From an archaeon (GTDB lineage: Archaea > Iainarchaeota > Iainarchaeia > Iainarchaeales > Iainarchaeaceae): DNA of 64,000 nucleotides. The notes under the pieces were generated by a model that did not search any database, was not told the origin of the DNA, and saw nothing but the letters and a program-made list of their open reading frames with translations. This document shows, piece after piece, positions 3,779 through 46,003 of the stretch. The stretch lies in NCBI GenBank assembly GCA_035655435.1, contig DASRUN010000066.1, positions 520 through 64,519 of the forward strand. Direction: 5' to 3'. How positions within the stretch are numbered: the first letter of the stretch is position 1; every line of letters starts with the position of its first letter. The position numbers and the translations under genes are program-made.

Positions 3779-4000
3779 TTAATCAAAAAAATAACTCTTT
3801 TTTCCTTTAAAATACTCGCGCTTTAGGACGGCGGTTTTTTAAGAGATTCAGGGGAAATTTCTTATCTTAGTTTCTTTCTTTTTTCGTAAAGAAACCCTGT
3901 GCTTTTTCTTTTGGTACAGCTTCCTTCCAGAAGTGAAGATTCTGGGAGGCCTCGCAGAACTTTGTTCTGCAAGGTTCTTTTCACGAAAAAGAAAAGGTGT

Positions 4001-6588: not shown

Positions 6589-6680
6589 TATCTCCATGCA
6601 ATGGAGATAACTGTCGCGCCCAACAGCCGAAACTGTTGTTTTACACCAAGATATTTAAAGCAAGAAAACCTAATTTTTGC

Positions 6681-9145: not shown

Positions 9146-9263
9146 CCCTCCTTAGCTTAGTAGCTAAAGCGTCCGGCTGTAGAACGACATTACTCCTTTG
9201 GGAGAGAAAATAATCGCAAGTGCGGTTACCGGAAGACCCCCGGTGCAAATCCGGGAGGGGGGA
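9146..9263 (+). tRNA. tRNA-Tyr (GTA) with 45-nt intron
   Basis: Acceptor CCCTCCT/AGGGGGG (one G-U), D stem GCTT/AAGC, anticodon stem TCCGG/CCGGA, loop CTGTAG|A. Intron at 9183-9227. T arm CCCGG-TGCAAAT-CCGGG. Confidence 0.8.
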
Positions 9264-25427: not shown

Positions 25428-25922
25428 TCAAAGCCTCACTTTAGGTGCATTTTCTTTTCCCTGTCTTTCTCCGGAGCCGGCTCTTTTATCCAACTCTTCC
25501 TGTGCAAAGAGCATCCAAAGCAAATTCAATGCATGCTTTGAAACTCTATTGCGCATTATTGATGCAAGTTCTCCCGCGGTTTTCCCCTCATCCTCGTGGA
25601 CGAATGCCTCGAGCACAATTTTTTTTGTCATCAATTGTATTTGGCCGATTCCGAGAGAAGCTTCATGCGAACATTGCTTATCAATGGGCATTGAACCAGG
25701 CATCCCCAAAGCCAATCCGGCTCTACACCCTTCATCAAGGAGATTGAGCATTGCGAGAGGGATGTCTTTTACTCCTGGAACTGTTCTTTTTTTTATTTCA
25801 ATTTCCCAATTTTTTTCTTTGGCATTTTTTTCCATTGTTTCAATTGCTATTTTCCCCATATCTCCCCGCGAGAACATTGTGTCGATAACGGCAATTTTCG
25901 TTTTGAGTTTTTTTTCACTCAT
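25428..25922 (-). CDS. ribC: archaeal-type riboflavin synthase
   Basis: KIAVIDTMFSRGDMGKIAIE matches the archaeal RibC N-terminus. Start taken at the second Met (the ORF track starts at 25937). Confidence 0.75.
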   Translation of the reverse strand: MSEKKLKTKIAVIDTMFSRGDMGKIAIETMEKNAKEKNWEIEIKKRTVPGVKDIPLAMLNLLDEGCRAGLALGMPGSMPIDKQCSHEASLGIGQIQLMTKKIVLEAFVHEDEGKTAGELASIMRNRVSKHALNLLWMLFAQEELDKRAGSGERQGKENAPKVRL

Positions 25923-29624: not shown

Positions 29625-29727
29625 ATGAGTGGGACCGTAGGTCGCACAGGTCTGACGGCGAACCAAGTGCTGCCGAAGGCGCACGCTCCCTTCCGAGGAG
29701 CACGCTCGGACGCGGAGGTGTTCCCGA
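29625..29727 (+). promoter_or_regulatory. GC-rich structured leader cassette, copy A (before rpoB')
   Basis: GTGGGACC-GTA-GGTCGCAC hairpin, CACAGGTCTGACGGCG, GCTCC/GGAGC hairpin, GAGCAC word. Ends GGAGGTG + 7 nt + ATG. See findings. Confidence 0.55.
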
Positions 29728-31551
29728 ATGGTTAAGGAAGCAAAGCAGGCAAAGGTTTACATTAACGGAAGACTTATCGGATTCCATCCCGATCCCATGA
29801 AATTGACAAGGGAAATTATTGCGCGCAGAAGAGAGTCAAAAATCTCCGAGCAGGCAAATGTTGCTTTCCACGAAGATACAAATGAAGTTTACATTAACAC
29901 AGACGCAGGAAGGGTTCAGAGACCGTTGCTTGTTGTTGAGAACGGAAAATTAAAAATTACCGATGAAATTGTAAAGCAGGTTAAGGAAGTTAAAAAAACT
30001 TGGCAGGATCTTATCCGCGAGGGATATGTTGAATACCTCGATGCGGAAGAAGAGGAAAATGCTTTCATTGCTTCAAACGAAAAAGAACTCGGAAAAGAGC
30101 ACACGCATTTGGAAATTGATTCCGCAACAATTTTGAGTGTAATAAGTTCCATGATTCCTTATCTCGAACACAACATGGCGGGAAAAGCGCTTCACGGAGC
30201 AAAAATGTTCAAGCAGGCACAGGGTTTCGGAGCAAGCAATTTTAATCTTAGAAGCGATACTGAAGGATATCTTTTGCATTACCCACAAAAATCTTTGGTG
30301 AAAACAAAAACAATGCACATGGTTGGATTGAATCAGAGACCGCAAATTCAGAATCTTGTTGTTGCAATAATGCCGTATTACGGCTTCAATATTTTGGATG
30401 CAGTAATTCTCAATAGAGGCGCTGTGGAAAGAGGAATGGGAAGAAGCTCTTATTTTAGAACTTATGAAAGCGCGGAAAACAGGTATCCTGGCGGACAGAT
30501 AGATAAATTTGAAATTCCGACAGAAGAAACCGTCGGATTTTTGGGAGAAGGATTTTACAAAAAGCTTGGTCATGACGGAATAATCCAGCTTGAATCCATT
30601 GTTGAAGAAAATGATGTTTTGATTGGAAGAACCTCCCCTCCAAGATTTTTGGAAGAAATCAATGAGTTCGGTGTTGTTCAGGAAAAAAGAAGGGAAACAA
30701 GCGTTACAATAAGAAAAGGCAAGGACGGTTTTGTTGACAAAATTTTTGTAACAGAATCGGAAGCCGGAAACAAGCTTGTGAAAGTTAAAGTTAGAAGCCA
30801 GAGAATTCCCGCGCTTGGAGATAAATTCAGTTCAAGGCACGGGCAGAAAGGTGTTGTTGGATTAATTGTTCCTGAGGAAGACATGCCTTTTACACCCGAT
30901 GGAATAAAACCTGATTTGATTTTGAACCCGCACTCTGTTCCTTCAAGAATGACCATTGGACACTTGCTTGAAATGCTTGCGGGAAAAGCTTCCGCAATGA
31001 AAGCAATGCAGATAGACGGAACTCCTTTTGGCGGAGTCAAACAAGCTGAACTTGAAAAAATGCTTGATGCAGCCGGATTAAGAAAAAATGCAAAAGAAGT
31101 TTTTTACGACGGTACAACAGGAAAAAGAATCCAAGGAGAAATTTTTACGGGACCGGTTGCTTATAGAAGATTGTTCCACATGACCGCGCACAAAATACAA
31201 AGCAGAGCTCGCGGACCGGTTCAGATTTTGACAAGACAGCCTACAGAAGGAAAGGAAAAAGAGGGCGGATTAAGATTTGGAGAAATGGAAGGAGAAACAT
31301 TGGTTGGACACGGAGCGGCAATGCTTTTGCAGGAAAAATTCATTGATGATTCCGATAAAGTTACAATGTGGGTTTCCGAAACCGCGGGAGTAATAGGATT
31401 TGAGGATCAAATCAGAAAAGTGAAGAGGGTTCTTGAGGCAAATGATTCGAAAATTTATCCTGTTGAAATGAGCTATGGTTTCAAATTATTGCTTGATGAA
31501 TTGAAAGCTCTTGGAGTATATCCTAAATTGATTTTGACGGACAAGGTGTAA
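29728..31551 (+). CDS. rpoB1: RNA polymerase subunit B' (C-terminal half of split RpoB)
   Basis: 607 aa. GDKFSSRHGQKGV, NPHSVPSRMTIG, and GGLRFGEMEGETLVGHGA motifs. Confidence 0.95.
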   Translation: MVKEAKQAKVYINGRLIGFHPDPMKLTREIIARRRESKISEQANVAFHEDTNEVYINTDAGRVQRPLLVVENGKLKITDEIVKQVKEVKKTWQDLIREGYVEYLDAEEEENAFIASNEKELGKEHTHLEIDSATILSVISSMIPYLEHNMAGKALHGAKMFKQAQGFGASNFNLRSDTEGYLLHYPQKSLVKTKTMHMVGLNQRPQIQNLVVAIMPYYGFNILDAVILNRGAVERGMGRSSYFRTYESAENRYPGGQIDKFEIPTEETVGFLGEGFYKKLGHDGIIQLESIVEENDVLIGRTSPPRFLEEINEFGVVQEKRRETSVTIRKGKDGFVDKIFVTESEAGNKLVKVKVRSQRIPALGDKFSSRHGQKGVVGLIVPEEDMPFTPDGIKPDLILNPHSVPSRMTIGHLLEMLAGKASAMKAMQIDGTPFGGVKQAELEKMLDAAGLRKNAKEVFYDGTTGKRIQGEIFTGPVAYRRLFHMTAHKIQSRARGPVQILTRQPTEGKEKEGGLRFGEMEGETLVGHGAAMLLQEKFIDDSDKVTMWVSETAGVIGFEDQIRKVKRVLEANDSKIYPVEMSYGFKLLLDELKALGVYPKLILTDKV

Positions 31552-31556
31552 TTGAT

Positions 31557-31653
31557 ATGATGACAAAAATGTTGAACGAAGCTAGTGTGACCGCAGGTCG
31601 TGGCATCGAGCACCGCGAAGATGGCACACCTCTCTCAGCGAGGTGTCGCTGAA
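31557..31653 (+). promoter_or_regulatory. GC-rich structured leader cassette, copy B (before rpoA')
   Basis: Begins with a duplicate of the rpoA' start (ATGATGACAAAAA). GTGTGACC-GCA-GGTCG hairpin. ACACCTC/GAGGTGT hairpin holds the SD 8 nt before ATG 31654. Confidence 0.55.
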
Positions 31654-34266
31654 ATGATGACAAAAAGAATTGAGGGAATTGAATTCAGGATTATGGGTCC
31701 GGAGTTTATTAGAAAAATGAGCGGGATAGAAATCAAGAGCCCTGAAACTTATGATAAAGACGGCTTCCCAATGGAAGGCGGATTGATGGATAATCATCTT
31801 GGGGTTATCAATCCCGGATTGAGATGCAAGACCTGCGGAAATACAATGAAAAAATGCCCCGGCCACTTTGGACACATAGAATTGGTTAGGCCGATTGCAC
31901 ACTCTGAATTCGGAAAAAAACTTGAAATTTTGATGCAGGCAACATGCCAGAGCTGCGGAAGAATAGCAATCCAAGCTGATAAGCTTGAGCAGTTAAGGGC
32001 TTTTATCGGCGATGAAACAATTAATATTGCAAAAAAGATTTTGGCAAAAACAAAAAAAGTGAAAAAATGTCCGCATTGTACTGCTGACAGACGCGAAATT
32101 TCACTTGACAAGCCCACAAACTTTTACATTGACAAGGACAGAATTTATCCCACGCAAATAAGGGAATGGGTTGAAAAAATCCCCGACAAGGATTTGGAAT
32201 TCTTTGGTTATGAACAAGGAAAACTCAGGCCGGAGTGGTTTATCATGACCGTGCTCCAGGTTCCGCCGATCAATCTTAGGCCGAGCATTACACTTGAATC
32301 AGGAATAAAAAGCGAAGACGATCTAACACACAAACTTGTTGATATAATTAGAATAAACATGAGATTGAAGGACAACATTGATGCAGGCGCACCGCAACTT
32401 ATCATTGAAGATCTTTGGGATTTGCTCCAATATCATGTGACAACGTATTTCAACAATAATACCGCGGGAGTTCCTCCGGCAAAACACAGGAGCGGAAGAG
32501 CACTTAGAACTCTTGTGCAAAGATTGCAGGGAAAGAAAGGAAGATTCAGGTACAACTTAACAGGAAAAAGAGTTAATTTTGCGGCTCGTTCAATCATAAC
32601 TCCCGATCCAATGCTTTCAATCAACGAACTCGGTGTTCCCCAAGAAATTGCGGACAACATGACTGTTCCGGAAATAATTACAAAAGGAACCTTGACAGAA
32701 GCAAAGAACATGATCAAGGAAGGAAAAGTAATTTATGTTATCAGGCCTGATGGAATGAGAAAAAAAGTTGTTGAGGCAAACATGGAAGCTATTTTGGAAG
32801 AGCTTGATGTCGGATTTAAACTTGACAGAAAATTGAAAGACGGAGATATTGTTCTCTTTAACAGACAGCCTTCGTTGCACAGGCTTTCAATGCTCGCACA
32901 CAGAGCAAAAATTATGAAAGACAAGACATTCAGATTGAATTCAATTGTGTGCAAACCATACAATGCGGACTTTGATGGAGACGAAATGAACATGCATGTT
33001 CCGCAAACTCCTGAAGGAATTGCGGAAGCAACAGAACTAATGCTTGTTGAAAAACAAATTATTTCCCCAAGATACGGAGCCCCGGTAATAATTCTTGATG
33101 AAGACGGAGTTTCAGGATGCTTTATACTAACAATGAAGCAAACCGTGTTTGATAAGGATAAGGCGTTCCAGTTTTTCCAGTTAATGAATTTGCAGGAAAT
33201 TCCAAAGCCGGATGTCGGAAAGGACAAATATTCAGGAAAACTAATTTTCTCGCAATTGTTGCCAAAAGATTTGAACATGGAGTACAAAACCAAATTGCAT
33301 GACATAATCAAAAGAGAAGATCCAAACAACGCACTATTGAAAGACCCGTACAAGAATGATTTGATAGTTAAGATTGAGAAAGGCCAATTGAAAGCCGGAA
33401 TAATTGATGCGGTCAGTCTTGGAGAAGGAAAAGGAAAACTTGTTGATGCACTTGCAAGGGATTATCCTCCTGCAGTAATAAGGGGTTTTTATGACAGTAT
33501 TTCAAAAATAATCGGCGGTCTTATAACGGAAGTTGGAATGACAGTAAGCCTTGAGGAATACACTCCGAGCAGCAAGATACTCAGTTTGAGAGAAAAAGCC
33601 GTTGAGGAAATGAGAAAAGAAACCGATTCGTGGGTTAAAAAATTCGAGAAAGGACATCTCGATTTAATTCCGGGAAGAAATCAGGAAGAGAGCTTTGAAA
33701 TTTACATGATGAGAACAGGGGCAGCTGCAAAAGAAAAATTGCAGAAGCAAATCATGAAAGAACTTGTTGATTCTGTAATGGTTGATGAACCTGAATTCAA
33801 CAGCAATGTAATGATACTTTCAGGTTCAAGAGGAAACATCATCAATCTTGTAAACTTATCCGGAATGTGGGGACAGGCATCTGTAAGAGAGGGAAGGCCG
33901 AAGAGAGGATTCTCGAATAGATTGATCGCACTCAACAAAAGAAAGGATGTTGGAATAGATGCGGGGGGATTCATTTACCACAATTTCATGGAAGGAATGA
34001 GCTCTTATGAATACTTCTATCACACAATGGGTGGAAGACAGGGAGAAGTTGACACGGGAGTTTCAACAAAGGTTTCCGGTTATTTGTACAGAAGGCTGGC
34101 AAATTCTTTGAAGGATCTTGTTGTAAACAATGATGCAACTGTGAGAACGGCAAACAAGAATATTGTACAGTACAAGTACGGAGAAGACGGAGTCTTCCCG
34201 GAAAAAACATTTAAAGGAAAAAGCGTTTCTGTGAAAAGAGAGCTTGAAAAAATGAGAAGCAAGTGA
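31654..34266 (+). CDS. rpoA1: RNA polymerase subunit A'
   Basis: Zinc motifs [17 protein letters not shown], and the [10 protein letters not shown] catalytic loop. Start set at [11 protein letters not shown]. The ORF-track start 31600 reads through the GC-rich cassette. Confidence 0.95.
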
Positions 34267-36292: not shown

Positions 36293-36426
36293 ATGAATGA
36301 AGCTCGTGTGACCGAAGGTCGCACACCTCTGAACTCCCGGAACGCCGGGAGCACGTTGCACCGCACTTTGTGCGGGGCTAGTCCAACCGAAGGTTGGACA
36401 CCTCTGAACGCGGAGGTGTCCGCATA
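36293..36426 (+). promoter_or_regulatory. GC-rich structured leader cassette, copy C (before rps12)
   Basis: Five hairpins folded by hand: 36306-24, 36335-50, 36361-75, 36383-97, and 36396-421. The last pairs GGACACCTC with GAGGTGTCC, i.e. the SD. Confidence 0.55.
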
Positions 36427-36870: not shown

Positions 36871-37494
36871 ATGGATAGAAAAAGCGATACAACAATGCTG
36901 GTTTTCGGAAAGTGGGATACAAGCGGGGTTCAAATCAAGGATCCGAGCCTTGCAAAATATGTTTCACTTGAATCAAAAAAAATTCCCCACACATTCGGAA
37001 AACAGACGAGAAAAAGATTTGCAAAAGGAAAACTTAGTATTGTGGAAAGATTGATCAACAAAATAATGAGATCCGGGCAAGGGAAAAGAAAACTTTCCGG
37101 AAAATACATTAGAGGCAGGGGAAGCTGCGGAAAAAAATTGCAGGCAATGCACATAGTTGAAAATGCGTTTGAGATCATTGAAAAGAAAACAAACAAGAAT
37201 CCTATTCAGGTTCTTATTGACGGAATACAATTCGCAGGCCCAAGAGAAGATATTACAAGAATTAAGAGGGGCGGAGTTTCTTATTCTGTTTCCGTTGATG
37301 TTGCACCTTTAAAAAAAGTTGATGAATCTTTGAAAAATTTGGCTCTTGCTGCTTTTTCCGGTTCGTTCAACAAAAAAACAAGCGCATCAGAAGCCCTTGC
37401 GGCTGAATTGATTGCCGCATCAAACGAGGACAACGCAAGCTTCAGCGTCAAGAGAAGAGACGAAGTTGAAAGGATTGCAAAAGCATCCAGATAA
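36871..37494 (+). CDS. rps7: ribosomal protein uS7
   Basis: 207 aa. LVERLINKIMRSG... and C-terminal KRRDEVERIAKA pattern. Conserved order. Confidence 0.95.
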   Translation: MDRKSDTTMLVFGKWDTSGVQIKDPSLAKYVSLESKKIPHTFGKQTRKRFAKGKLSIVERLINKIMRSGQGKRKLSGKYIRGRGSCGKKLQAMHIVENAFEIIEKKTNKNPIQVLIDGIQFAGPREDITRIKRGGVSYSVSVDVAPLKKVDESLKNLALAAFSGSFNKKTSASEALAAELIAASNEDNASFSVKRRDEVERIAKASR

Positions 37495-37530: not shown

Positions 37531-37626
37531 ATGAGCGAAGCTAGTGTGACCGAAGGTCGTGGCATCGAGCACCGCGAAGATGACACAGGTCTAACGGCGG
37601 ACCTCTCCGCCGCGAGGTGTCGCTGA
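37531..37626 (+). promoter_or_regulatory. GC-rich structured leader cassette, copy D (before EF-2)
   Basis: About 50 nt nearly identical to copy B. Segments AGGTC, GACCTC and GAGGTGT form mutually exclusive pairings. TGA is followed directly by ATG 37627. Confidence 0.55.
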
Positions 37627-45607: not shown

Positions 45608-45759
45608 TATTAAAAAGCTTGTGGTTTAGAACTACACACATTTTATGCGTCGCAGTCAGGTGCTGACACTGAAAGAATTGAAAAAAATGGCTTCAAATAA
45701 AGGGGCTCCACAGGCAACCATAGAAAAAGATTACGCGCAAAGGATTCTATCGAAGACAA

Positions 45760-45948
45760 ATGAAACGCAAATACAACGACCACCTCTACCACAGACGTAG
45801 CCTTATCGAAAGCGCATTCTCTGCAAACAAACGACGTAGCGGTAGCCACATCCTATCACGCACTGCCCGCACACAGCGGGCAGAAATATTCACCCGCTAC
45901 ATCACACACAACCTAAACTTAATCAAAAAAACAAAGACTTTCAACTAA
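45760..45948 (+). pseudogene. C-terminal fragment of an IS4/IS5-like DDE transposase
   Basis: YHRRSLIESAFSANKRRSGSHILSR...AEIFTRYITHNLN matches the conserved Y..R..(I/V)E..F...K tail of DDE transposases. No N-terminal catalytic part is present. Locally higher GC by eye. Confidence 0.5.
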
Positions 45949-46003
45949 ACCAAAAGGAACTAAAGGTTTAAATAGCTGAAAAGATTTATTAGAAGGGAAA
46001 CAA

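Follow-up and report, generated by a model that had tools for sequence, protein, structure and literature searches.

A small GC-rich element flanked by a duplicated rpoA′ start at the rpoB′/rpoA′ junction of a Candidatus Iainarchaeum genome

Rickettsia palindromic elements are lineage-specific, palindrome-rich sequences of about 100–150 nt that have no known transposase and occur in translated regions of a reduced genome. They are positioned in frame inside open reading frames (ORFs) and become part of the protein; we know of no description of long flanking duplications as one of their features. The ERIC/IRU, Neisseria Correia/NEMIS, and pneumococcal BOX elements are small multi-copy operon inserts that are co-transcribed and form stable hairpins. 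BOX elements are modular, and ERIC/Correia-type elements have terminal inverted repeats and a short target-site duplication of fixed length (TA for ERIC and Correia). REP, BIME, and REPIN sequences are mobilised by RAYT (Y1/HUH) transposases, and the insertion of REP and IS200/IS605-type sequences leaves no duplication. Mitochondrial byp elements, which lie inside ORFs and are hopped over, and gene 60 of phage T4 are characterised by GC-rich hairpin inserts flanked by matching codons. Target duplications have variable lengths of 7–20 nt in target-primed reverse transcription (TPRT, LINE/SINE-type) and measure 14–15 nt in casposons.

Here we describe an apparently undescribed family of small (about 55–160 nt), non-autonomous, GC-rich, hairpin-modular elements of Candidatus Iainarchaeum (DPANN). 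Rickettsia palindromic elements are mentioned in two articles (PMC1458961 and PMC1166351). The Iainarchaeum elements resemble them in being short, lineage-specific, compatible with translation, and located in expressed regions, but differ in their position at stop/start junctions, in an SD-like (Shine-Dalgarno) hairpin, and in being spanned by a separate bridging ORF. Like ERIC, Correia, and BOX, they are small, non-coding, present in multiple copies between the genes of operons, and fold into hairpins. In contrast to these bacterial repeats, they are archaeal, have duplications of 13 to about 33 nt, are biased towards one operon and the sense orientation, and are spanned by ORFs. The small size, non-coding character, and multiple copies agree with the definition of a MITE, whereas terminal inverted repeats and a short duplication of fixed length were not found; the duplications measure 13(17), 16(24), 19, 23, 28, and about 33 nt. 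The GC-rich imperfect palindromes, the composite intergenic arrays after stop codons, and a possibly strand-specific single-stranded DNA hairpin are reminiscent of REP/BIME/REPIN sequences; however, the Iainarchaeum elements have flanking duplications and no conserved GTAG-like head.

The element denoted B is positioned between the genes rpoB′ and rpoA′ in the analyzed 64-kb stretch of DNA, referred to as the window. The gene rpoB′ (positions 29,728–31,551) encodes RNA polymerase subunit B′ of 607 aa, as indicated by its translation and by the Pfam domains Rpb2_4-7 of an identical product, and rpoA′ (31,654–34,266) is an ORF with a translation of 870 aa. Both genes are on the forward strand, as are the elements and their parts given below. 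The 13-nt sequence ATGATGACAAAAA occurs at 31,557–31,569 and again at 31,654–31,666, where it forms the functional start of the 870-codon rpoA′ ORF. There are no other exact copies in the window, and the single copy with one mismatch is on the other strand at 25,622. With one mismatch allowed, the repeat is 17 nt long, TGA[T/A]ATGATGACAAAAA. A direct repeat of this quality did not arise in 200 composition-preserving shuffles of the junction, nor in the 2000 shuffles of a gapped test. The 84 nt between the two copies (31,570–31,653) have a GC content of 58%, compared to 39% for the window, and constitute element B, which would span 31,570–31,649 if the 17-nt repeat with one mismatch is the duplication. 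In silico removal of positions 31,570–31,666 results in TAAttgatATGATGACAAAAAGAATT with a spacer of 5 nt. This is comparable to the spacers of 6–7 nt at the rpoA′/rpoA″, L30e/nusA, and S12/S7 junctions of the window, and the emptied junction aligns with the actual short junction of the related genome L003 (...gaattgatATGATGATGAAAAGG). The repeat, the GC-rich insert, and the short spacer left by its deletion had been noticed previously from the DNA letters (hereafter the sequence-only reading), and all three were reproduced.

The 13-mer encodes the conserved N-terminal codons of RpoA′, and rpoA′ of the sister genome L167 also opens with ATGATGACAAAAAG. The sequence-only reading had named two results that would speak against a target duplication, relatives that retain both repeat copies without the cassette and a repeat that is part of the element consensus; both tests favoured the duplication. 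Element D, which shares 93% identity with B across 81 aligned positions, does not contain the 13-mer and is bounded by ...CAACTACA and ATGGCCAAAAAGG. Therefore, the 13-mer belongs to the target, the local rpoA′ start, and not to the element. A duplication of 26 nt, in which the AGGTGT preceding both repeat copies is counted, can be dismissed, as GAGGTGTCGCTGA likewise forms the end of element D. Comparison of related junctions, proposed as a check, showed that the relatives with rpoB′/rpoA′ spacers of 4–25 nt (L169, L004, L003, and L165) each have only one rpoA′ start. The same holds for L163 and L168, but there the spacers of 41–43 nt may be what is left of a decayed element. In L083, the element at this junction is flanked by its own lineage's variant of the rpoA′ start, TGTTAATGCAAAAAA and TGCTAATGAAAAAAA. 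We conclude that B is a copy of a lineage-specific mobile family that was put into the rpoB′/rpoA′ junction with duplication of 13, possibly 17, nucleotides. The repeat copy upstream of B duplicates the rpoA′ start and has been left orphaned.

Contigs of this species in public assemblies end within B, at window positions 31,614 and 31,636, indicating that the repeat confuses assemblers. The structure could hence be suspected to be a chimera or a collapsed or misjoined repeat of a metagenome-assembled genome, but such an artefact is virtually inconceivable. The left junction of B is identical base for base in the two independent assemblies L001 and L002 (99.8–99.9% identical), the contigs of which both stop within the element, and a further contig of 45 kb (P0001) encodes an RpoA′ with an N-terminal extension read from within the element. 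Element D is spanned completely and confirmed in a third assembly (L171), and analogous structures are present in 11 other genomes from different studies. The NCBI record HZX20613.1 (P0121) is located on a 66-kb contig.

The window contains four related copies, all on the sense strand of one operon and each directly upstream of a start codon, and two partial modules. No copies were found in the L3-L4-L23-L2 operon at 59–63 kb of the window. Element A (29,625–29,727, 66% GC) is at the rpoB″/rpoB′ junction; element C (36,293–36,426, 60% GC) is between nusA and rpsL (S12) and forms a string of five hairpins with a fold z-score of −5.1; and element D (37,531–37,626, 61% GC) is between rpsG (S7) and the EF-2 gene. 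D is B-like apart from one additional hairpin module of about 14 nt, and the identity of the two indicates at least one recent copy event. The sequence-only reading had seen no clear flanking repeats at A, C, and D, in agreement with the p-values of 0.68, 0.49, and 0.07 obtained here, and a search for decayed duplications around these three elements gave nothing significant. The short ATG-proximal similarity that it gave as an example, AATGAGC at 37,493 and 37,530, is not significant either (p = 0.76).

Judged by sequence and predicted folding, the elements are modular and consist of a purine-rich 5′ motif, hairpins with GNA triloops and tandem G·A pairs, and a 3′ hairpin with GAGGTG just before the next ATG. 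In B, the 5′ motif GAACGAAGCTA (31,574–31,584; family consensus GYGCGAACGAAGYGAGCAAG) precedes hairpin 1 (31,585–31,603), which has the stem GUGUGACC/GGUCGUG and a G-N-A triloop (four matches compared to 0.29 expected). The loop reads GCA in B, GTA in A, and GAA in both C and D. As DNA, C-GNA-G triloops have very high stability. The following hairpin (31,600–31,627) contains a tandem-G·A internal loop, GUGGCAUC-GA-[GCACCGC]-GAA-GAUGGCAC, and its outer stem covaries among the copies, with at least seven different complementary versions. The 3′ alpha/beta module (31,625–31,652) is formed of the anti-SD-like CACACCUC and the beta hairpin UCAGCGA-GGUG-UCGCUGA, and includes the SD-like GAGGTG at 31,640–31,645. 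The beta helix is 97% paired, a percentage inflated by copies in the covariation alignment that came from a stem-requiring search; it has compensatory changes in six of its seven pairs and was matched by none of 500 shuffles. In the alpha helix, a swap from CC/GG to GG/CC is perfectly correlated in 11 of 11 copies. The covariation argues that the element structure is under selection. An element starts with the purine-rich motif at its 5′ end and finishes at its 3′ end with the last of its hairpins, which differs among copies; comparison by eye of the ends of duplication-bounded copies, namely B of the window genome, L003 S12/S7, L003 B2/B1, and L004 A1/A2 revealed no terminal inverted repeats. 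The sense fold is more stable than the antisense fold in 22 of 25 elements, but the z-scores relative to shuffles of the own strand are equal (−1.6 and −1.7), so that fold analysis does not separate an RNA-level role of the hairpins from one in single-stranded DNA.

Compensatory base changes in the modules could also be explained by a resident cis-regulatory RNA leader that evolved in place, such as a binding site for an r-protein or a protein of the L7Ae/L30e family, or an SD-sequestering switch, with the repeat resulting from local slippage. Two mutually exclusive helices include the SD; in alpha, GAGGUG is paired to CACCUC, whereas in beta a tetraloop exposes GGUG. The operon copies are all sense-oriented and abut start codons, a gene of the L30e/L7Ae family belongs to the same operon, and an element of the same architecture is positioned at the same junction in L167. 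Nevertheless, such a leader is unlikely. The covariance models of Rfam 15, which include hammerhead, twister, riboswitches, and r-protein leaders, did not match any element of the window or the relatives, either at the gathering score or at E ≤ 10. The K-turn was rejected as well: the GA/GAA tandem is present, but the 3-nt bulge is missing, and the register imposed by the covariation is that of a 2×3 loop containing one additional A. None of the Rfam families that contain a K-turn matched. The covarying outer stems (CUAUC/GAUAG, CUGUC/GACAG, CAAUC/GAUUG, CUAUU/AAUAG, and others) are incompatible with the K-turn register. A C/D-box reading of ATGATGA...CTGA was rejected on register and covariation, and a hammerhead-like reading (GA-stem-GAA) was rejected for want of a CUGANGA core and of an Rfam match. 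The distribution of the modules also speaks against a leader. They occur at nine different junctions, including positions that follow a tRNA gene or the final gene of a convergent pair, and are on both strands in a cluster of L170. Furthermore, unrelated local sequences are duplicated at about seven sites, and B and D are nearly identical. An inserted element could still have been exapted for regulation.

Homologous elements are present in 11 of 13 related Iainarchaeum genomes, at differing junctions of the rpoH–EF2 operon, and about 30 copies were counted over the 13 related loci. The distribution is patchy among genomes with RpoA′ identity of about 80%, and L006 and L169 are free of elements, indicating that the elements are dispensable, which is a further argument against a resident leader. 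The sequence-only reading had suggested a search for additional copies with flanking repeats; in the relatives, elements at about seven independent sites are flanked by a duplicated piece of the neighbouring gene's end or start, 13 to about 33 nt in length, one of these being the duplicate of the rpoA′ start in L083. The significant cases are 28 nt with one mismatch at L004 rpoA′/A″; 23 nt with one mismatch, 19 of them exact, at L003 S12/S7; 16 exact nucleotides, or 24 at the codon level, at the nusA end of L167; 16 and 14 nt at the rpoH ends of L165 and L167; the S12 ends of L163 and L168; 19 nt with two mismatches at the rpoB″ end of L003; and 33 nt, corresponding to ten codons and a stop, at the Ogg end of L168/L163.

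The insertion of B may not be recent, because the rpoB′/rpoA′ junction of L167 carries the element of matching architecture, to which B may be orthologous unless it was inserted anew. If a deletion of 5 nt is assumed, the left flank of the L167 element, TTGTATGAAAAATG, would correspond to the same duplication. The window genome and L167 are close to synonymous saturation, with a third-position identity of 60%. Therefore, the perfect 13/13 repeat would not be a fresh scar but would point to constraint, conversion, or re-insertion. No allele of the same species without an element was found, as four of four assemblies carry B or D, and a scan of metagenome contigs identified only four further Iainarchaeia loci. 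A BLAST search with element D against plasmids and phages gave no matches, and the B/C/D core was absent from the scanned viral contigs. The 18-nt 5′ motif occurs in five viral contigs, mostly within coding sequence or an unrelated context, which by a rough estimate is near chance.

The upstream repeat copy is the start of a bridging ORF of 31 codons (MMTKMLNEASVTAGRGIEHREDGTPLSARCR*; 31,557–31,652, forward strand), the TGA stop of which ends 1 nt before the rpoA′ ATG. ATG-initiated ORFs that end at the downstream start span 17 of 20 non-orthologous elements, compared to 6.1 expected (P < 1e-5, simulation). This excess, together with the small ORFs called at several such junctions in public assemblies, is what would be expected of a small gene for a 31-aa micropeptide with paralogues before rpoB′, rpsL, and EF-2. 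However, the same module is read in different frames among the copies (ATC GAG, T ATC GA, and CTA TCG AG), indicating that the openness of the frame is conserved and not the peptide sequence. The copies display no amino-acid conservation in one frame and no shared peptide sequence beyond their nucleotide identity, non-triplet indels separate the modules, and conservation resides in the base-paired stems. No relatives of the B and D peptides were found among 5.8 billion proteins. A micropeptide gene is thus extremely unlikely.

The last codons of rpoB′, AAG GTG TAA, constitute the ancestral SD-like signal for rpoA′, and gacaaggtgTAA/TGA is conserved in relatives. The insertion displaced this ancestral SD (AAGGTGTAA) by 97 nt, and the GAGGTG of the element is positioned 8 nt upstream of the rpoA′ ATG. 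In this genome, SD-like 4-mers show a 3.4-fold enrichment ahead of genes, and G(C)GAGGTGT is present at four of the four genes preceded by an element. A spacer of about 20 nt abolishes termination-reinitiation coupling in H. volcanii and E. coli (PMC10666635; PMC6728339). The insert can be read as a putative relay that preserves translational coupling, with predicted translation of the bridging ORF. Element B was copied in a few bases inside rpoA′, and the downstream duplicate would restore the start of the gene. The insertion may have been tolerated because the GAGGTG of the 3′ hairpin replaces the ancestral SD and the upstream duplicate initiates an ORF through the element. Because the bridging ORF stops 1 nt before the ATG, ribosomes would be delivered to the rpoA′ start by termination-reinitiation coupling, as at an intact overlapping junction. 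The earlier proposal that the duplicated start rescued rpoA′ needs an addition: the ATG alone would be insufficient, and the element adds the GAGGTG and the bridging ORF.

Mobile GC clusters and byp elements of yeast mitochondria, and T4 gene 60, are similar to the Iainarchaeum elements in the combination of GC-rich hairpins, an AT-rich genome, invasion of expressed regions, short matching flanks, and a translational trick. This likeness raises the possibility that the insert is removed or skipped during expression, by intron-like excision or by translational bypass with duplicated take-off and landing codons, and that the duplication belongs to the mechanism and is not a scar. Downstream, apparently untranslated copies of duplicated gene ends indeed remain coding-like. 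At the Ogg end of L168, which has no gene downstream, the two copies differ at 9 of 33 nt, without exception synonymously (WYMKTGKVLK* in both); mismatches in the other duplications are mostly synonymous too. Excision or bypass is nonetheless very unlikely. In B, sense codons and not a stop follow the potential take-off codon of the upstream copy; the downstream copy is equipped with an SD and an ATG of its own, which makes a bypass unnecessary. In contrast to byp and gene 60, to which the hosts and sequences are unrelated, the start, SD, and stop of the Iainarchaeum elements make a conventional relay sufficient. Where gene ends are duplicated, the first copy has a stop and the protein is complete without the second. 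The direct repeats cannot form bulge-helix-bulge pairing, there is no match to a ribozyme or intron family, and the distances between the copies are mostly not multiples of three, which is consistent with a separate bridging ORF.

Insertion with duplication of the target, as the sequence-only reading proposed, is supported and recurs in relatives. The term target-site duplication in the sense of a transposase needs qualification, since a microhomology-mediated template switch would leave the same scar. A search for a candidate mobilising enzyme in the window, also suggested by that reading, found only a degenerate DDE_Tnp_1 fragment at about 45.7–45.95 kb (E = 8e-4, below the Pfam cutoff), and no Y1/HUH protein, RAYT gene, reverse transcriptase, or Cas1 was present among the window ORFs. 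The long target duplications are similar to those of TPRT and of casposon/Cas1 integration, and their variability is similar to TPRT. However, unlike TPRT products, the elements have no A-rich or reverse-transcriptase-recognition 3′ tail and no 5′ truncation, as the 5′ motif is the conserved end, and unlike in casposon integration the duplications differ in length. Either a staggered break or template switching during replication appears to fit better than a classical DDE transposase, because the duplications are variable, inverted termini are missing, and the joints have microhomology. The best overall explanation, which we consider probable, is the insertion of a member of the mobile family with target duplication, tolerated through the restored start and SD and the bridging ORF. 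It is possible, but rather doubtful, that the family is a new class of selfish archaeal DNA, a self-contained coupling cassette spread among essential-operon junctions by transposase-independent copying that duplicates 13–33 nt of the target, with coding-like constraint on the downstream duplicates. Such a cassette would comprise an A/T-rich leader with an ATG (often ATGA), an open frame, an SD-presenting hairpin, and a stop abutting the start, and would be copied by template switching or staggered-break repair. The coding-like constraint would hint at an additional recoding or RNA-level step.

Bacteria and organelles are known to harbor small structured repeats in expressed regions, but such repeats are hardly known from archaea and not known from DPANN, the genomes of which are usually viewed as streamlined. 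The operon invaded in Iainarchaeum, encoding RNA polymerase, S12, S7, and EF-2, is the most conserved one of the cell; insertions have occurred repeatedly where stop, SD, and start overlap, and the invader appears equipped to keep ribosomes flowing. If confirmed, the elements would have a consequence for annotation, as gene callers place the RpoA′ start inside the element and assemblers break contigs there. They would also exemplify insertion in which long duplications of variable length arise with no obvious transposase, and provide natural material for testing the distance rule of archaeal termination-reinitiation coupling.

The repeat-flanked insert at the rpoB′/rpoA′ junction is real. Two exact copies of the 13-mer ATGATGACAAAAA, the only ones in the whole window, are positioned at 31557-31569, 5 nt past the rpoB′ stop, and at 31654-31666, where the repeat forms the beginning of the 870-codon rpoA′ ORF. 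The repeat lengthens to 17 nt if one mismatch is allowed, and shuffling of the junction did not produce a comparable repeat in either of two tests (0/200 and 0/2000). The 84 nt between the copies (element B, 31570-31653) have a GC content of 58%, compared to 39% for the window. For this species, two independent assemblies show an identical left junction of B; the contigs of both terminate inside the element, since the repeat and insert cause assemblers to break there. The sister copy, element D, is spanned in full by a third assembly. Public RpoA′ calls begin within element B, at GTG 31600 (888 aa) or ATG 31621 (881 aa; P0001, P0124, and P0121 compared), and NCBI record HZX20613.1 is the only call that uses 31654 as the RpoA′ start (870 aa).

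The sequence-only reading, according to which a cassette inserted just inside the 5′ end of rpoA′ and duplicated the gene start, is supported by the origin of the repeat. The 13-mer is formed of the N-terminal codons of RpoA′, and RpoA′ of the sister genome L167 likewise opens with ATGATGACAAAAAG. Elements B and D are 93% identical over 81 aligned positions and differ by one hairpin module of ~14 nt, and the flanks of D are unrelated to the repeat of B. Therefore, the repeat is not part of the element consensus. Relatives that lack the cassette at this junction (L169, L004, L003, and L165) have a single rpoA′ start and a spacer of 4-25 nt, and the L003 junction, gaattgatATGATGATGAAAAGG, resembles the window sequence after in-silico excision of the insert. 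The rpoA′ start is likewise unduplicated in L163 and L168, the spacers of which (41-43 nt) may be leftovers of a decayed element. Neither of the two refuting outcomes named with the sequence-only reading was thus observed. The term target-site duplication holds in the sense of an insertion-associated duplication, and should be read with the enzymology left unspecified.

Element B is one of four GC-rich inserts in the rpoH–rpoB″–rpoB′–rpoA′–rpoA″–L30e–nusA–S12–S7–EF-2 operon. Elements A (29625-29727), B, C (36293-36426), and D (37531-37626) are all on the sense strand, end at the next start codon, and have the core GTGKGACCGNAGGTCG in common (4 matches versus 0.29 expected). Insert-free junctions are 6-18 nt long, and no insert was found in the L3-L4-L23-L2 operon of the same window. 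The window derives from a DPANN archaeon of the Candidatus Iainarchaeum group, and the RpoA′ sequences nearest to that of the window are 78-83% identical to it. Additional element copies or modules are positioned at ~3870-3990 on the minus strand and at 6595-6645, where two hairpins directly follow tRNA-Thr. The second of these hairpins (CCCAACAG CCGAAA CTGTTG, then a T-run) is a module also present in the operon elements and may be a terminator. A 118-nt Rfam tRNA match at 9146-9263, missed by ARAGORN, is probably an intron-containing archaeal tRNA.

The operon was mapped in 13 related loci, 11 of which contain homologous GC-rich elements, distributed patchily over nine different junctions; no element was found in the mapped operon of L006 and L169. 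The rpoB′/rpoA′ junction of L083 contains an element that is bracketed by that locus's own start variant, TGTTAATGCAAAAAA / TGCTAATGAAAAAAA. Significant flanking duplications occur at the ends of rpoA′ in L004 (28 nt, 1 mismatch), nusA in L167 (16 nt exact, 24 nt at the codon level), rpoH in L165 (16 nt) and L167 (14 nt), and rpoB″ in L003 (19 nt, 2 mismatches). The L003 S12/S7 duplication (23 nt with 1 mismatch, 19 exact within) spans the S12 stop and S7 start, and diverged versions of it occur in L163 and L168. Outside the operon, an element inserted at the end of the Ogg gene in L168 (3046-3687 and ~100 nt downstream, minus strand) and L163 (3473-4105) is flanked by a significant 33-nt duplication of 10 codons and the stop. 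The recurrence of local duplications at these sites indicates that a long, variable-length duplication on insertion is a trait of the family. No terminal inverted repeats were found in the family. Element copies or modules are also present at the EF-1α/S10 junction of L164 and, with modules on both strands, in a GC-rich 400-nt cluster of L170 (1575-1975) that is flanked by the genes for riboflavin kinase and DMRL synthase and which the gene caller reports as a 148-aa ORF without a Pfam match.

The operon of the relatives is a hotspot for further selfish DNA: LAGLIDADG-domain inteins in rpoB″ and EF-2 (L163, L165-L168, L170), a split S12 gene (L166 14736-16691), and 1-5-kb insertions between rpoA″ and L30e that include toxin-antitoxin-like genes (L003, L004, L019, L168). 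A different kind of junction occupant is a small hydrophobic ORF opening with TGAATGATGAAT between rpoB′ and rpoA′ (L170 9779-9994, 71 aa), which is truncated in I. andersonii (L005 7737-7820).

The elements can be divided into an A/T-rich leader with an ATG, a purine-rich motif (consensus GYGCGAACGAAGYGAGCAAG) that opens the GC-rich core, and variable hairpin modules. In one of these modules, a stem is closed by a G-N-A triloop (GTA in A, GCA in B, GAA in C and D). A second hairpin has a GA/GAA internal loop and an outer stem in at least seven complementary forms, and a third is CCCAAC...GUUG(U)GGG. The GA/GAA internal loop was considered as a K-turn and rejected, as it has one extra A instead of a 3-nt bulge in a register fixed by covariation. 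The last module is the 3′ alpha/beta module, the two helices of which overlap and are mutually exclusive. In 11 copies, the 7-bp beta helix with a GGUG or CCUG loop has compensatory changes in 6/7 pairs and is 97% paired, a value inflated by the stem-requiring search that gathered some of the copies, which does not affect the compensatory changes; the CC/GG to GG/CC swap in the alpha helix is perfectly correlated. No Rfam family matches the elements, and the folding comparison does not separate hairpin action at the RNA level from that at the single-stranded-DNA level. The 5′ motif (ATGAGCGAAGC... / GCGAAGCAAG) resembles the first rpoB′ codons (M V S E A K), for example ATGGTTAGCGAAGCAAAA at L167 8087, which may point to an origin of the family in a duplicated rpoB′ start that was later incorporated into the mobile unit. 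Sequences similar in style to the 5′ motif occur in an unrelated IMG/VR viral contig (L174 4340-4520, 63% GC), where GTGAGCGAAGCGAAC and GCGAACGAAGTGAGCAAG motifs form a non-coding array accompanied by GNA-triloop hairpins, and in a Methanimicrococcus locus (L076 12890, 13286, 13682), where three copies of TTTTTGAGCGAAGCGAAAAAAG lie 396 nt apart.

The near-identity of B and D, together with the absence of D from L167, indicates copying since the split from that genome. In L167, the rpoB′/rpoA′ junction is occupied by an element built in the same way, whose left flank could be explained as the duplication seen at B after a 5-nt deletion. The window and L167 are near synonymous saturation and share an element at this junction, so the two repeat copies may match at 13/13 positions because the start of the bridging ORF is constrained, or through conversion or re-insertion, and the repeat need not be a fresh scar. 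In duplicated gene ends, the downstream copies show coding-like evolution. The Ogg-end duplicate encodes WYMKTGKVLK* twice, and the L168 copies differ at 9/33 positions, all synonymous. At junctions, such constraint could reflect a reinitiation signal; this explanation fails for the Ogg-end copy, which has no gene 3′ of it. The coding-like constraint on that apparently untranslated copy leaves a small probability of an RNA-level or recoding step at the elements.

The 64-kb window lacks an intact gene for a transposase, reverse transcriptase, integrase, Cas1, or HUH enzyme. Its sole transposase-like sequence is a degenerate C-terminal piece of an IS4/IS5-type DDE transposase in a 396-nt gap (45640-45950, plus strand; DDE_Tnp_1 E = 8e-4, below the cutoff). 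The variable duplications (13 to ~33 nt) and the absence of terminal inverted repeats argue against a classical DDE MITE. The 3′ ends of the elements (..GGTTGTGG, ..GAGGTG) often have 3-5 nt in common with the beginning of the downstream duplicate. A template switch during replication or repair would yield both these shared bases and the duplication pattern; a staggered break with fill-in is equally possible.

The downstream repeat copy opens rpoA′, as rescue by a duplicated start requires, and the rescue appears to rely also on a Shine-Dalgarno (SD)-like signal and a bridging ORF carried by the element. In short-junction relatives, the SD-like signal for rpoA′ is within the last rpoB′ codons (AAGGTGTAA). 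Element B displaces this ancestral signal by 97 nt and brings GAGGTG 8 nt upstream of the rpoA′ ATG; G(C)GAGGTGT is present at that position in all four element-preceded genes, and SD-like 4-mers upstream of genes are 3.4-fold enriched in this genome. At the upstream repeat copy, the orphaned start initiates an ORF of 31 codons with a TGA 1 nt ahead of the real rpoA′ ATG. ATG-initiated bridging ORFs, which run from near the upstream stop to a position between -6 and +9 nt relative to the downstream start, occur in 17/20 non-orthologous elements versus 6.1 expected from dinucleotide shuffles of the element interior (17 reached in 0/200,000 simulations). Because the reading frame through homologous modules differs among elements, the bridging peptides are not conserved across the family; it is the openness of the frame that is selected. 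Overlapping gene pairs are over-represented among genes for subunits of complexes, and a spacer of ~20 nt abolishes termination-reinitiation coupling in Haloferax volcanii and E. coli (PMC10666635; PMC6728339). It is therefore plausible, judging from sequence, that the bridging ORF serves as a relay that would keep this coupling across the insert.

Functionally, these elements come nearest to Rickettsia palindromic elements, bacterial co-transcribed MITE-like repeats (ERIC, Correia, BOX), REP/BIME arrays, and mitochondrial GC clusters or byp elements. To our knowledge, none of these joins all the features of the present family: residence in an archaeon, insertion at gene junctions, long duplications of variable length, absence of terminal inverted repeats, a 3′ hairpin that carries an SD, and a bridging ORF. 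The Iainarchaeum elements are probably best classed as small non-autonomous structured mobile repeats.
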